A stretch of DNA of 12,978 nt from a virus: UHGV virus genome UHGV-1798460. The stretch is one strand, 5' to 3'. How positions within the stretch are numbered: the stretch's first letter is position 1; the number at the start of each line of letters is the position of its first letter. This document shows positions 1 through 11,916 of this stretch, one piece after another. The translations under genes were made by a program, and so were the position numbers. The notes beneath the pieces are model-generated. The model saw only the letters and a list, made by a program, of their open reading frames with translations. It searched no databases and was not told where the DNA came from.

Positions 1-137
1 TGAAAAAACTGACGTTCACTGGAGTGGTCGGTTTAGCGTTGCACCAATGCTCGATAGGATGTATCGTTTTTGAAAAACAATTGGTTATGTGTTTTGTGGG
101 AGCCTATTGGGAACCTATCAAAAGATTTTTTGTCATA

Positions 138-161
138 ACAGTGTCAGATGCAAAACACTGT
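138..161. promoter_or_regulatory. 7-bp inverted repeat ACAGTGT-N10-ACACTGT just upstream of the -35 of the module promoter; candidate regulator binding site
   Basis: Read directly: acagtgt at 138-144 and its reverse complement acactgt at 155-161, 10-nt spacer. Confidence 0.3.
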
Positions 162-174
162 GATGGTCGCTTTG

Positions 175-203
175 TTGACATCGCAACTTCTGCAGGTATA
201 ATT
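175..203 (+). promoter_or_regulatory. Consensus sigma70 promoter (TTGACA-17 nt-TATAAT) for the Panacea/membrane-protein operon
   Basis: TTGACA at 175-180, 17-nt spacer 181-197, TATAAT at 198-203; predicted TSS near 210, leaving a roughly 150-nt leader before the ATG at 360. Confidence 0.6.
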
Positions 204-359
204 CGCCACCAATTTGTAACCTGTGTATATGTACAGTCATTTGCTGGTTATAAACACAGTGAATTGCTCTTGCAATCTTCCAAAACTTTTTTGTTCGTGT
301 TAGGTTGAGATAACAGTGATGATACTGTTTGCACATTCAGTGTAATGAGGAGGGTGGTT

Positions 360-833
360 ATGTACAGTCCGGTACAAATAGCCAATAAATTCATAACGTT
401 GGGAAACCAACATCATAATCCTCTGACCCACATGCAACTGCAGAAGCTTACTTATATTGCCCATGGTTACTATTTAGCATTAACAGGTAAGCCTTTGCTC
501 AATGAATGTGTCTCCGCGTGGAAGTACGGTCCAGTTATTCCTGGAATGTACGATGCTTTCAAAGACTATGGGAATAAACCTGTTACGAATGTAGCAGTAG
601 CTCCTTTTGGTGGCATCGTTACTATGGATCCGCAAGCAGAGAGCATTATCGGGGCTGTTTATAAGTTTTACGGCTCGAAAAATGGAATTGAGTTATCAAC
701 TCTAACTCATATGCCAGGTACGCCTTGGTCACAAGCTTATAATGGTATTGGCTCGTCAATCATCTCAAATGATGCGATCAAGGCTTATTATCATGATTTA
801 TTGAATAACCGACAGCAATGTCAGGGCCTCTGA
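360..833 (+). CDS. DUF4065 / Panacea-domain protein (PanA-like putative antitoxin; SocA/GepA family)
   Basis: ORF track 345-833; preferred start is the ATG at 360, 6 nt after GAGGAGG (347-353). The N-terminal pattern LQKLTYIAHGYYLALTGKPLLNECVSAWKYGPVIPGMYDAFKDYG matches my memory of the DUF4065 core (LQKL.Y.A.G..L....PL......AW..GPV....Y..FK.YG). Confidence 0.7.
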   Translation: MYSPVQIANKFITLGNQHHNPLTHMQLQKLTYIAHGYYLALTGKPLLNECVSAWKYGPVIPGMYDAFKDYGNKPVTNVAVAPFGGIVTMDPQAESIIGAVYKFYGSKNGIELSTLTHMPGTPWSQAYNGIGSSIISNDAIKAYYHDLLNNRQQCQGL

Positions 834-854
834 AAAGTAATATTCAGGGATGAC

Positions 855-1403
855 ATGTCTCACAATTCAGATATTTATAAACTTATCGGAGCGGCCGCAG
901 GTGTTGAAAATGGTCGCTCTGAAGCATCCTTAAACTCTACTGACAGTCAAGAACAGGTTTTTAAATCTGCATTTGAGCCGTCTAATCATGAGAGCGACGA
1001 TGATTCTTCTTCAGAAAATAAAGCTATTCTGGAGGCAGAAGAGTTTGGTTCTAATACTGGTGCATTGCATGAGTTTATGCAGCAGAACAGAATGGACAGT
1101 CTTCAAGCTCAGCTTGATATGCTCAAATCACAAGTACGGGATAAGATAGCTGACGCAACTGGTAAAGAAATAGACAATGAGCTTCGGACAAAAATGGCCT
1201 CATTCACGGTTTGGTTTATGTCGTGTTGGTGCTTATTCGTTGTCGCAATGTTTACATCGTTTCTTATTGCACATGAAGGAAAGCCTCCAGTTGAAGCGAT
1301 CGTTGCATTACTAGGTACAAGTACAATTAGTATTGTTGGTTTGGTTGGTTTCGTTGTTAGTGGATTGTTCAAATCAAGAAAAGATAGTGATAAAGAAAAA
1401 TAA
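855..1403 (+). CDS. Membrane protein: acidic, Ser/Asp-rich N-terminus, coiled-coil segment, two C-terminal TM helices; candidate toxin/effector partner of the Panacea protein
   Basis: ATG at 855 lies 21 nt after the upstream stop, with a GGGA RBS. Hydrophobic stretches FTVWFMSCWCLFVVAMFTSFLIA and IVALLGTSTISIVGLVGFVVSGLF are followed by a basic tail KSRKDSDKEK. Confidence 0.6.
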   Translation: MSHNSDIYKLIGAAAGVENGRSEASLNSTDSQEQVFKSAFEPSNHESDDDSSSENKAILEAEEFGSNTGALHEFMQQNRMDSLQAQLDMLKSQVRDKIADATGKEIDNELRTKMASFTVWFMSCWCLFVVAMFTSFLIAHEGKPPVEAIVALLGTSTISIVGLVGFVVSGLFKSRKDSDKEK

Positions 1404-1421
1404 CCCGTACATATACGGGTT
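1402..1421. terminator. Bidirectional rho-independent terminator between the convergent Panacea module and the leftward early operon
   Basis: Perfect 8-bp stem AACCCGTA/TACGGGTT with a 4-nt loop. On the minus strand it is followed by ATTTTTCTTTAT, on the plus strand by a T-rich AGTTTTAGTTTAGTT. Confidence 0.65.
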
Positions 1422-1436
1422 ATCCATAGTTTTAGT

Positions 1437-1709
1437 TTAGTTATATTTTTGTTTTTCCGTTCTGACTTTTTCCCACTCAGCTCGCCCTTCTTCCCGTCTT
1501 TTGTCAATATATTCCGCAAGATCCTGAATGTTGATGCAGCGTTTTGCTTTTTGTGATGTACCGATGCGATATGTAGGTACAGGCAACTTACAAGCGTTTG
1601 CTTTTGCTTCTGCTGTGGCTGGACTCATACCAAAGTATTTTTGACTAACTGCTGAGAGTTCAATGTTAGGGGTATTGAATTCAGCCATCAGTAAAAACAA
1701 GGTGTTCAT
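1437..1709 (-). CDS. PrtN-like / excisionase-like small DNA-binding protein
   Basis: ATG at 1709 with a GGAG RBS 6 nt upstream (MNTLFLLMAEFNTPNIELSAVSQKYFGMSPATAEAKANACKLPVPTYRIG...). The family assignment is from memory of enterobacterial prophage annotations, not a search. Confidence 0.5.
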   Translation of the reverse strand: MNTLFLLMAEFNTPNIELSAVSQKYFGMSPATAEAKANACKLPVPTYRIGTSQKAKRCINIQDLAEYIDKRREEGRAEWEKVRTEKQKYN

Positions 1710-1745
1710 AATTTTCTCCATCAAAACCGGCTGCACCCGGGAAAA

Positions 1746-6528: not shown

Positions 6529-7497
6529 TTAGTAGGTTATTTTTGTTGCGAATACTTCGCCTTTTACGATGGCTGTTATGATATTTTTAGCAACATCTTC
6601 TGATGCACCAACCTTGATAAGGTCAGCAAGTATTTTGTTATTTACTTCTTTCCGGTGAGCTTTATCCTTTGCTCTACACTCTTCCTCTTCCTTGATTCTT
6701 TTTTCTTCTGCTATTCTGGCTTGCTCTTTTGCTTCAGCCTCGCGCCGGATTCGTTCAGCCTCCTCCTGTGCTTTTCGGCGTTCTGCTTCGATTGCCGCCT
6801 GCTTTTCTCTTTCAGCTCGTTCTGCTGCCTCTTTTGCTTCGCGCTGTGCTCGTTGCTCGGCTTCAATGCGTTCACGCTCTGCACGTTCCGCTGCGGCCTT
6901 AGCTTCTGCTTCTCGCCTTGCTGCTGCTTCAATTTCGGCTTTTGCCTTTGCTTCGGCTTCTGCTCTGGCTTTCTCTTCAGCTTCTCTTTTTAAGCGTTCT
7001 TCATGCTCTCGCTTTTCCTGCTCCGCTTTGAGTCTTGCCTCTTCTCTTTGGCGGTCAAATTCGCGATCCATCAAAATCGCTATTTCATGGTCAGACTCAA
7101 TTTGCTTTGCGAGAGCTTCAGCTGCTGCCTTAGCTTCTTCTTCGGCTTTAATCCGCGCCTGTTCCTCTTCATAATCAGTAAGAGGCTGGCGTGCCTTGGA
7201 TTTCAGCTCATCAAGGCGATCACGCACTGTCTTGCGGTTGGCATCAATTAGCTTTGGAATTTCCTTCAGTTCAGCAACAAGGTCTTTTCCAAGACCATCG
7301 AGATATGTTTTCGTCTGCGCAACTTTATACGCCAGAGAAGCGATCTCCTTTCTGCCCTTTGCCGTTGTGATATCAGGCACAAAGGACATAACTTCACGTT
7401 CAACCTTTTGAAGGATTTCTTCAATCTGGTCGGCAGACTGAAATACAGTCATTGCATTTGCTTTTTCAATAACAACTAAATCTGTTACTTCACTCAT
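6529..7497 (-). CDS. Coiled-coil protein (322 aa) with a long E/R/K/A-rich central repeat region
   Basis: Start ATG at 7497 with GGAGGA upstream. The ORF-track 5' extension to 7551 runs through the terminator hairpin and is rejected. The central 150 residues or so are almost entirely E, A, K and R. Confidence 0.65.
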   Translation of the reverse strand: MSEVTDLVVIEKANAMTVFQSADQIEEILQKVEREVMSFVPDITTAKGRKEIASLAYKVAQTKTYLDGLGKDLVAELKEIPKLIDANRKTVRDRLDELKSKARQPLTDYEEEQARIKAEEEAKAAAEALAKQIESDHEIAILMDREFDRQREEARLKAEQEKREHEERLKREAEEKARAEAEAKAKAEIEAAARREAEAKAAAERAERERIEAEQRAQREAKEAAERAEREKQAAIEAERRKAQEEAERIRREAEAKEQARIAEEKRIKEEEECRAKDKAHRKEVNNKILADLIKVGASEDVAKNIITAIVKGEVFATKITY

Positions 7498-7509
7498 ATA
7501 TCCTCCGTC

Positions 7510-7538
7510 AAAAAAATTGCCCTCACACTGGAGGGCAA
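7510..7538 (-). terminator. Intra-operon rho-independent terminator (tL-like) immediately upstream of the coiled-coil gene RBS
   Basis: On the minus strand: stem TTGCCCTC/GAGGGCAA with loop CAGTGT, followed by TTTTTTT. The T-run ends 3 nt before the GGAGGA of the next gene. Confidence 0.55.
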
Positions 7539-7672
7539 AGAAGATTTCCAATAATCAGAACAAGTCGGCTCCTGTTTAGTTACGAGCGACATTGCTCCGT
7601 GTATTCACTCGTTGGAATGAATACACAGTGCAGTGTTTATTCTGTTGTTTATGCCAAAAATAAAGGCCACCA

Positions 7673-8214: not shown

Positions 8215-8418
8215 TTACCTCGCTGTAACCTGCTTACTTGTACGATGACCAGCTGCGAAAAGCGCAACTTCTGGCAGGCAGACAGTACCACCTTCAACTT
8301 CCTTCTGAAGCGTTCCGGCAAGCGAAATGGCTCTTGAAACACGTTTACTGGCTCCGTCCATGATTTTCATGAAAGCCATATAGTGCATTGGCTTCTTTCC
8401 TTGCTTGTTTGGCATCAT
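8215..8418 (-). CDS. Small ORF at the position normally held by the N antiterminator; start uncertain and no arginine-rich motif
   Basis: The ORF overlaps the HNH gene 3' end by 74 nt if it starts at 8418. Candidate ATGs at 8388 (weak AAGGAAAG) and 8361. It is the second gene after PL. Confidence 0.3.
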   Translation of the reverse strand: MMPNKQGKKPMHYMAFMKIMDGASKRVSRAISLAGTLQKEVEGGTVCLPEVALFAAGHRTSKQVTAR

Positions 8419-8878
8419 CTAAAAGTTTGAATGAGCCTAGGTATTTTCGTTTTCCATCCACAGTTATCGATGCAACATAAAACCCATGCTCTTTTCTTGC
8501 TTCAACACCTGTAACTCCAGTTGATGAAGATGATTTTAAAGGCATGTTTTTCATATTCTCTTTGAAAGAAACGCTTCTTAAATTGGAGATTCTGTTGTCA
8601 TCCTTAACGCCGTTTATGTGATCAATCACATCAGGCCAGTAGCCATGCACGTAAAGCCATGCAAGTCTGTGAGACTTAAATTTTTTACCTCCAATATTTA
8701 TTCTCAGATAACCCTTGTTGTCAGGTGAGCCAGCCTTTTTACCTGGATACTTCTTGTTCCACGTCAAGGCAGCTCTGTTATCCGCAAACAAATGCTTTGC
8801 TCTCGGCTTCCAATAAAAGTCACCACTCACAGGATTGTAATAAAGAATCTCCCTTACAGACGCTTGAGTAAGATCCAC
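8345..8878 (-). CDS. HNH endonuclease with C-terminal AP2 DNA-binding domain (free-standing homing-endonuclease type)
   Basis: GTG start at 8878 with AGGAGG 5 nt upstream. HNH_3-type motif HRLAWLYVHGYWPDVIDHINGVKDDNRISNLR, followed by an AP2-like GVTGVEARKEHGFYVASITVDGKRKYLGSF. Confidence 0.8.
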   Translation of the reverse strand: MDLTQASVREILYYNPVSGDFYWKPRAKHLFADNRAALTWNKKYPGKKAGSPDNKGYLRINIGGKKFKSHRLAWLYVHGYWPDVIDHINGVKDDNRISNLRSVSFKENMKNMPLKSSSSTGVTGVEARKEHGFYVASITVDGKRKYLGSFKLLDDAKQARKEANALYGFHENHGRSQ

Positions 8879-9184: not shown

Positions 9185-9916
9185 TTAGTAGTCAACTACA
9201 GACCACCAGAAGATTCTTCCGATGATCTCGATATCGCTTAGATTCTTTTCTTCTTGTGGGTATTCCAGTGAGTTAAAGCTTCTAATGCTTACCTTGTCAG
9301 GCCCTGATCGAAAGAGAATCTTAATGCGTTTCCAACCGTTCTCGTTAATGGCGTAAATCTTTCCGTCAACTATTTTCTTATCGTTGGTGTTAACAGCAAC
9401 TGTTGTTCCATCAGGAATGTTTGGCTCCATGCTGTTGCCACGAGCCGGAAAACAAACAACCCCGCTTCCATCACTGTTCGCGCCAACTCTGCGAAGGGTT
9501 GATTTGGAGAAGCGCAACATAAAGCCGTTGTGATCTTCATCAATCACCCGACCATCCCCGCATGCAAACTCAATATCTTTAAGGTAAGGAATTTCAACTT
9601 CATCACCTCTTAAAGGCGTTCCTCCATCCCATGGGTCCAAATATCCCCACGTGCTTTCATGAGGAATAGAAGATTTTGGATTATAAGGTTCAACTCCCTC
9701 ATCACGCATTGGCCCAGTTCCATCGGAAAGCCATTCCGTACGAACTCCAAGCACTTTTGATATTTCAAAAAGTTTGCGCGTATTGCGTGTTTTTCCAGAC
9801 GTAAGTTTCCAGACGCTTGGCTGAGACATGCCAACAGCATTGCCAAGAGAAGCCTGAGTAAACCCAGCCTGATCCATCGCGTATGTAAGCCTTTGAGAAA
9901 AAGTATCTAGTTTCAT
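9185..9916 (-). CDS. cI: CI-like phage repressor (N-terminal HTH, C-terminal S24 LexA-type autopeptidase domain)
   Basis: HTH region QASLGNAVGMSQPSVWKLTSGK; S24 motifs GNSMEP (Ser nucleophile) and a downstream KR. Divergent from cro across an operator region. Confidence 0.8.
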   Translation of the reverse strand: MKLDTFSQRLTYAMDQAGFTQASLGNAVGMSQPSVWKLTSGKTRNTRKLFEISKVLGVRTEWLSDGTGPMRDEGVEPYNPKSSIPHESTWGYLDPWDGGTPLRGDEVEIPYLKDIEFACGDGRVIDEDHNGFMLRFSKSTLRRVGANSDGSGVVCFPARGNSMEPNIPDGTTVAVNTNDKKIVDGKIYAINENGWKRIKILFRSGPDKVSIRSFNSLEYPQEEKNLSDIEIIGRIFWWSVVDY

Positions 9917-10968: not shown

Positions 10969-11916
10969 ATGAGCAATACAGCAAAAATCTACGATTTCAG
11001 CGCCGCACACGAGCGCAGGAGCAACAGGATGGAGAACCAGAAAACTGGTTACATTCCGTTGTACCGGAGCATTCTGAAACAGTCATGGGCGAAAGATGTT
11101 TATCTTCGCACCCTGTGGGAAAACCTTCTCCTGAATGCCGCCAGAAAGCCATACAAAGCGAATTTCAAAGGTCATGAATGGCATCTGCAACCCGGTCAAC
11201 TGGTTGTGACAGCAGCTGATTTAGGTCTTCAGTTATGCGACAGACATGGCAAGCCAGCAAGCCGTGATCAGGTTGAGCGGATGCTTCAGGTTTTTGTGAA
11301 AGAGGGGATGATCTCCATTGATGGAGAGAAGCAAAAAGGTCGTGTGATAACCATCACAAATTACCATGAATATGCTCAAAAAATGGACAATTCACCCGCA
11401 CATGAAGCCGCACAAACAACCGCACATGATGCCGCACATGATGAAGCCAGTAATGGCGCGGCATTCAGCGCACATGCCGCACATGAAAGCGCACATGAAG
11501 CCGCACAAACAACCGCACATCATGAACAAGAAGGTATTAACAAGAATATAAATAATACCCCCCTACCCCCCAATGGGGGAGGCGATGGGCAGGTTAAACC
11601 TGAACGTCGCAAGGCAGAACGAATCGACTACGAATCCTTCCTGAACGCCTACAACACCGAAGTCGGTGACAGACTTCCACACGCTGTTGCGGTCAACGAG
11701 AAACGAAAACGCCGCCTGAAGAAAATCATTCCGCAACTGAAAACGCCAAACGTGGACGGTTTCAGAGCGTATGTCAGGGCGTTTGTGCATCAGGCCAAGC
11801 CGTTTTACTTCGGAGACAACGACACTGGCTGGACGGCAGATTTTGATTACCTGCTGAGGGAAGATTCGTTAACGGGAGTACGGGAAGGGAAGTTTGCAGA
11901 CAGGGGGATTGCATGA
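10969..11916 (+). CDS. Replication initiator, lambda O-like (N-terminal iteron-binding domain, repetitive linker, C-terminal domain)
   Basis: N-terminus [11 protein letters not shown] resembles lambda O MTNTAKILNFG. The gene contains the tandem repeat and AT-rich tract expected of an embedded origin. Its stop overlaps the helicase start (ATGA). Confidence 0.7.
11396..11524. repeat. Iteron-like 12-bp tandem repeats (CCGCACATGANG family), two blocks, inside the O-like gene; candidate replication origin
   Basis: Units read at 11396, 11408, 11420, 11432 and 11477, 11489, 11501, 11513. A 30-nt segment gcacatgaagccgcacaaacaaccgcacat occurs twice (11398-11427 and 11490-11519). Confidence 0.55.
11527..11580. 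promoter_or_regulatory. AT-rich tract plus C/G palindrome next to the iterons; candidate DNA-unwinding element of the origin
   Basis: aaggtattaacaagaatataaataata followed by cccccctaccccccaatggggga. Confidence 0.4.

Follow-up and report, generated by a model that had tools for sequence, protein, structure and literature searches.

Kurata et al. (2022; PNAS 119:e2102212119, PMC8832971) newly verified nine PanAT toxin–antitoxin pairs, among them PanA–PanT of Escherichia coli, and found PanT of E. coli to be toxic and to be neutralized by PanA. This toxin halts transcription, translation and replication simultaneously and indiscriminately, and it causes strong inner-membrane depolarization together with SYTOX Green entry, which the authors read as the formation of large pores; ClpXP and Lon are both dispensable for neutralization by PanA (Kurata et al., 2022). 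The pair is listed in Table 1 of that study, for E. coli STEC O31, as WP_000287252.1/WP_000019185.1 with the entry "membrane," and its supplement places it in cluster T3 with A ahead of T (A|T), 22 nt between the genes and "TA" as the flag for validation; PanA is entered there as "noNTD," i.e., without a DNA-binding domain. Complexes of PanA with PanT were recovered by pull-down for five PanAT pairs, the E. coli pair not among them (Kurata et al., 2022). For the PanT of B. choladocola (formerly B. apis), a predicted interface with the stand-alone Panacea domain is backed by mutagenesis, and the parts of the toxin contacted by Panacea are its unstructured N-terminus and a short pre-membrane helix (Ernits, 2023). 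The GPV signature of Panacea has been reported to be critical for neutralization.

The stretch of DNA analyzed here (hereafter the window; 12,978 nucleotides of UHGV virus genome UHGV-1798460) comes from an E. coli lambdoid prophage, of which it covers the left end and the early region. With high confidence, we assign the module near its left edge to the E. coli PanAT toxin–antitoxin system, as one of its alleles; it forms a self-promoted cargo cassette next to the attachment site of a dusA-integrated lambdoid prophage (Table 1). Over 1,800 bases including the module, the window is 99.9% identical to E. coli strain 19-5, whose RefSeq proteins WP_000287252.1 and WP_021563277.1 are identical to the two window translations. 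The antitoxin is therefore the same sequence as the validated PanA (100% identity to WP_000287252.1), and the window PanT can be aligned without gaps to the validated toxin WP_000019185.1, which in strain STEC1588 is annotated beside WP_000287252.1, with 175 of 182 residues identical (96.2%). The seven differences are conservative: V35A, K37E, and S47R fall in the variable acidic region, V130A, A131G, and T134V in the first membrane helix, and S178G in the tail. The window allele would be expected to behave like the validated one. Both genes are labeled in the GenBank record of phage PhiR47_1 (PV340566.1) as "PanA antitoxin" and "PanT toxin," and the PanT of that phage differs from the window PanT at one residue.

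The initial annotation of this DNA had proposed a self-promoted module that couples a Panacea antitoxin to a membrane toxin, a description upheld by the PF13274 match, by the identity with the validated pair and by the promoter itself (see below). It had also taken the membrane protein to lie outside described toxin families and the pairing to be possibly uncharacterized; this was wrong, because an identical PanA and a PanT of the same cluster (T3), matching at the identity given above, had already been validated in 2022. The pair is thus real but already described, having been named, assayed for toxicity and rescue, assigned a mode of action and annotated in public phage records, and what is new here is the genomic context only.

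Table 1. Features of the panAT cassette and its flanks (window positions).
Feature	Position	Strand	Remarks
Host dusA, native 5′ fragment, displaced	1..55	+	Context, outside the module
Attachment-site region	39..116	none	Core around 39–63; conserved arm with repeats at 98–115
Swappable cargo cassette	117..1433	+	Inverted repeat, promoter, leader, panA, panT, hairpin
Imperfect inverted repeat 5′ of promoter	134..165	none	Arms 134–144 and 155–165
Candidate consensus sigma-70 promoter	175..202	+	TTGACA-16 nt-TATAAT; both boxes perfect; consensus match
5′ leader, ~150 nt	203..359	+	Read from sequence; GGAGG ribosome-binding site at 349–353
panA, stand-alone Panacea-domain antitoxin, 157 aa	360..833	+	Pfam PF13274; = WP_000287252.1
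panT, membrane toxin of cluster T3, 182 aa	855..1403	+	= WP_021563277.1; PHROG 13343
Hairpin, terminator-like on both strands	1400..1423	none	Perfect 10-bp stem, 4-nt loop
Excisionase-like gene (PrtN/AlpA type)	1437..1736	−	Pfam PF11112, E = 3.9e-23; PHROG 1300, E = 6.2e-40

The assignment of the first gene to the DUF4065/Panacea domain was borne out by an HMM search, in which the Pfam family SocA_Panacea (PF13274) matched PanA residues 27–123 (E = 5.9e-18; 66.3 bits against a cut-off of 25.7). The GPV motif is present at residue 57, in the context KYGPVIP. For PanT, the Pfam search returned no family, and PHROG 13343 matched the protein from end to end (E = 1.9e-113). The second product had been described as a 182-aa protein with an acidic, disordered N-terminus, a short coiled coil and two C-terminal transmembrane helices, and its composition is as follows: residues 1–75 carry a net charge of −11, residues 76–114 are of balanced charge and resemble an amphipathic helix (heptad spacing judged by eye, and a helix in the AlphaFold2 model), and two hydrophobic segments follow at about 115–139 and 147–171, separated by a 7-residue loop and succeeded by a basic tail. 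Modeled by AlphaFold2 from the single sequence, PanT has helices at 55–141 and 145–180 with a turn between them and a low-confidence N-terminus; this model, made without an alignment, is weak (mean pLDDT 65.5, pTM 0.31) and was used for helix boundaries only. Solved structures searched by sequence contained no meaningful match for either PanA or PanT.

Purifying selection acts on both genes. Values of dN/dS ranged from 0 to 0.16 for panA, for which most comparisons showed up to 11 synonymous and 0 non-synonymous changes, and from 0.09 to 0.27 for panT. Within PanT, residues 23–63 are variable and those from 64 to the C-terminus almost invariant, the second membrane helix being invariant. Among the related loci L005–L013, PanA is unchanged from the window in most alleles, and PanT differs by up to 12 residues. 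Synonymous divergence between the window and L009 is 0.04 in panA and 0.18 in panT, an inequality that suggests recombination breakpoints within the cassette.

Upstream of panA, the initial annotation had placed a perfect TTGACA/TATAAT promoter with a 17-nt spacer ending at 203; the two perfect boxes stand, but the spacer is 16 nt and the element occupies 175–202. No other site in the window matches perfectly, and shuffled sequence would be expected to give 0.01 such matches; among 14 alleles a single spacer base differs while the remainder is constant. The inverted repeat that had been reported directly 5′ of this promoter is also there, its 11-nt arms complementary at 10 of 11 positions (91%). 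It is, however, poorly kept among the 14 alleles (5 of 32 columns variable) and ranks with the most variable parts of the cassette, only the terminator flank (15.2%) being comparable; no paired changes on the opposite arm were seen in this comparison. We rejected the repeat as an operator on account of its variability, the non-compensatory nature of its changes and the lack of a DNA-binding domain in PanA. The leader of roughly 150 nt ahead of the first gene was likewise recovered, spanning about 209 to the panA ATG at 360, with GGAGG 6 nt 5′ of the ATG. As a candidate regulatory RNA it was set aside: its predicted folding is no better than that of shuffles (z = −0.58, no significant fold), and an Rfam scan of positions 1–2000 found no family near threshold (best E = 0.41, on the opposite strand within panA).

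The two genes lie on the same strand with a 21-nt gap, and from the constitutive-looking sigma-70 promoter panA and then panT would be read as a single transcription unit. The hairpin behind them overlaps the panT stop codon and so lies inside the cassette. It scores as terminator-like on both strands, in keeping with the bidirectional terminator, shared with the PL operon, that had been proposed at this position; the minus strand offers the better T-run, and the plus-strand run is weak. Judged from their sequences, the promoter and the hairpin probably work as promoter and terminator, respectively.

The excisionase-like gene, the last in-window gene of the leftward early operon, converges on the cassette. 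All ORFs taken as genes to the right of the cassette, up to the cI-like repressor gene (9185–9916), lie on the minus strand, as expected from the earlier statement that the module runs opposite to the neighboring phage genes, and they include the excisionase, a 3′–5′ exonuclease, an Ea22-like protein and an ERF recombinase. Three other features of the window were recorded. A 340-aa minus-strand ORF at 6529–7551 has a long, extremely charged center rich in Glu, Ala, Lys, and Arg (EAKAKAE-type repeats) and no Pfam match. Near the repressor gene, still within the leftward early region, an HNH_3 endonuclease-domain protein (8345–8878, minus strand; PF13392, E = 2.8e-15) may be a homing-endonuclease-type insertion. 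Finally, copies of a 12-nt repeat (CCGCACATGAWG-like) recur every 12 nt in two runs at 11384–11538, the step from one run to the other being 69 nt; the array sits in a replication-initiator-like gene (10969–11916), gives its product a repeated HEAAQTTAH peptide, and looks like the origin iterons of a lambdoid O gene.

At the left end of the window, the prophage junction could be followed through the fate of dusA. In identical loci in RefSeq, a 105-nt pseudogene annotated as "tRNA-dihydrouridine synthase, missing C-terminus" ends at the dusA fragment, and the integrase together with an intact or restored dusA is found some 38 kb distant, where the prophage has its other end. Phage records begin at window positions 47–54, and in two loci the sequence departs from that of the window left of position 39 (L007) or 52 (L012). 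The repeats in the attachment arm (GGGAGCC and GGGAACC) are by themselves not above chance. The dusA fragment points into the cassette, and an orphaned host dusA promoter, being so directed, could read into panAT. In the excised circle, the predicted minus-strand order is early operon, xis, antisense cassette, attP, and int.

Comparison with sibling phages defined the limits of the cassette. Similarity to PhiR40_1 and mEp460 ends at 116, after the attachment core and arm, and restarts just past the excisionase stop codon, at 1434 in PhiR40_1 and PhiR55_1 or at 1447 in mEp460; because the shared backbone breaks off and resumes at these points, the segment between them is a self-contained cassette. 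PhiR40_1 and mEp460 also carry two small plus-strand genes between the attachment arm and the excisionase gene, but the genes themselves differ from panAT. Those of PhiR40_1 encode an unrelated 179-aa protein without a Pfam match, which has no meaningful similarity to PanA, and a YafO-family toxin (PF13957, E = 1.9e-21), whereas those of mEp460 encode two unrelated proteins with no function assigned. In the PhiR40_1 locus (L015, 222–1212), the depositors name the 179-aa protein "YafM antitoxin," and it may be an undescribed antitoxin partner of YafO. Cargo swapping at the same prophage position in relatives, which the initial annotation had marked as something to check, is therefore seen in both phages, and the moron-type layout that it had proposed is likewise supported.

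Only 79 of the 5,426 complete E. coli genomes have the cassette, in each case chromosomal and single-copy; the plasmids searched contained no panAT, and the species-representative genomes no close relative of PanT. Phage records with PanT numbered only three, all from E. coli (PhiR47_1, 1720a-02, and phiSTEC1575-Stx2k), and one panAT-bearing phage is Stx2k-converting. Homologues of PanA, by comparison, occur in 168 phage records from many hosts. PanA precedes PanT in all 13 inspected loci from E. coli genomes and phages. The same order holds for 30 of 31 IMG/VR loci, and the contig of the 31st starts at panT. One of these 30 loci, L048 (436–1564), carries a co-diverged pair (PanA 76% and PanT 64% identical) among different neighbors, namely a DinI-like gene, a Hin-type DNA invertase and tail-fiber genes, with no excisionase. 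The PanT encoded there has a longer, unrelated acidic linker, with the helix and the membrane hairpin conserved. Since the pair has diverged together and sits in a different phage setting, panAT moves between phage backgrounds as a unit.

Combined with the published activity, these features fit a mechanism in which PanT would be anchored in the inner membrane by its C-terminal two-helix hairpin. PanT left free would depolarize the membrane and form pores large enough for SYTOX Green, upon which macromolecular synthesis would cease, and PanA, as a cytoplasmic stand-alone Panacea domain, would neutralize it. By analogy with other PanAT pairs and with B. choladocola, PanA probably binds directly to the cytoplasmic N-terminal part of PanT; we infer this contact here because the complexes were shown for five pairs other than that of E. 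coli.

Given this activity, what the pair does for the prophage can be read in several ways. An anti-phage role, by abortive infection or by superinfection exclusion, is compatible with the toxin–antitoxin identity, and we advance it tentatively, as possible rather than probable. For abortive infection, an invading phage would disturb PanA, acting as a sensor, and PanT, once released, would kill the lysogen or halt its growth before the invader could multiply. This reading is consistent with the carriage of the pair as prophage cargo under its own promoter, with expression predicted to be independent of the lytic operons, with the other toxin modules that sibling phages hold in the same slot, and with the spread of PanA homologues over many phages and hosts noted above. 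It also has a precedent, as Panacea has been proposed to act as a sensor and RosmerTA, a comparable membrane-depolarizing toxin–antitoxin system, defends against phage (Ernits, 2023). Against it, the models of PADLOC-DB 2.0 matched neither protein, PanT giving no match and PanA only a chance-level one to a restriction-enzyme model (E = 0.02), and no defense phenotype or anti-phage test of the pair is reported in the literature covered, which excludes the study depositing PhiR47_1 (Brenes & Laub, 2025).

A more specific proposal combines position and trigger: the attP–xis gap of dusA-integrating lambdoid coliphages would be an exchange slot reserved for self-promoted toxin cassettes, and PanAT in that slot a phage-triggered abortive-infection switch. 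The boundaries of the cassette are clean and lie in a slot where relatives hold other toxin modules. We regard the proposal as rather unlikely as it stands. If true, the exchanged cassettes would include PanAT, the YafO-type module and others, and Panacea would sense a product of the invader and release a pore-forming toxin, which would give the Panacea family both a function and a trigger. The trigger and benefit of PanAT are a family-wide question, not one particular to the window locus, and PhiR47_1 with its ECOR13 host offers a convenient native system in which to address it.

Type II toxin–antitoxin pairs on mobile elements classically behave as addiction modules, and panAT could stabilize the prophage in this manner: once the element was lost or excised, PanA would decay and the membrane-embedded PanT, if long-lived, would poison the cell. 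The location of the cassette at the extreme end of the element, beside the attachment site, and the very strong constraint on PanA (0 non-synonymous against at most 11 synonymous changes) would suit such a role. Neutralization by PanA is, however, independent of Lon and ClpXP, many sibling phages do without the cassette, and only the small fraction of complete E. coli genomes given above carries it; we think addiction quite improbable. A holin-like part for PanT in the phage's own lysis, with leftward early antisense transcription after induction silencing panA, is very improbable indeed, for although PanT forms large pores and a single hairpin is all that separates the cassette from the leftward early operon transcribed towards it, related phages lack the cassette and it is thus dispensable, the lysis genes are far away, the promoter appears to be of housekeeping type, and neither Pfam nor PHROGs shows any similarity of PanT to holin families. 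Both prophage addiction and a role in phage lysis are weaker alternatives than abortive infection or superinfection exclusion.

Whichever role it serves, the module is best understood as PanAT by comparison with the systems already described. One of these is SocA–SocB of Caulobacter crescentus, a type VI toxin–antitoxin system that likewise has an antitoxin with a Panacea/DUF4065 domain. SocA, however, serves ClpXP as the adaptor for a toxin that blocks replication, whereas the partner of PanA is a membrane protein and proteases are not required; neutralization without ClpXP or Lon sets PanA apart from the SocA adaptor mechanism. Filing the pair as SocAB was accordingly rejected, as the NCBIfam SocA equivalog NF047745 scored 97 bits on PanA against a cut-off of 190, the Pfam search gave no SocB-like match for PanT, and the proteases are dispensable.

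Another is the PanT of B. choladocola (cluster T12, node D11), whose composition, by description, resembles that of the window PanT. The two share membrane depolarization with SYTOX Green entry, and neutralization by a stand-alone Panacea PanA that is direct for B. choladocola and probably so for the window pair, but Kurata et al. (2022; PMC8832971) assign the B. choladocola toxin to a sequence cluster of its own, and homology between the two toxins is uncertain. The closest system is the STEC O31 pair, with which the window shares an identical antitoxin, the length and architecture of the toxin, and the gene order; genomes with the validated allele also show the same flanks, a dusA fragment and the excisionase gene. 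The differences are small. The intergenic gap is 22 nt in the STEC O31 pair and 21 nt in the window, where one A is missing, and the STEC O31 locus was flagged "NotPhage" (Kurata et al., 2022; PMC8832971), whereas the window locus is clearly prophage-borne. The locus that received this flag is the terminal cassette of inducible lambdoid phages.
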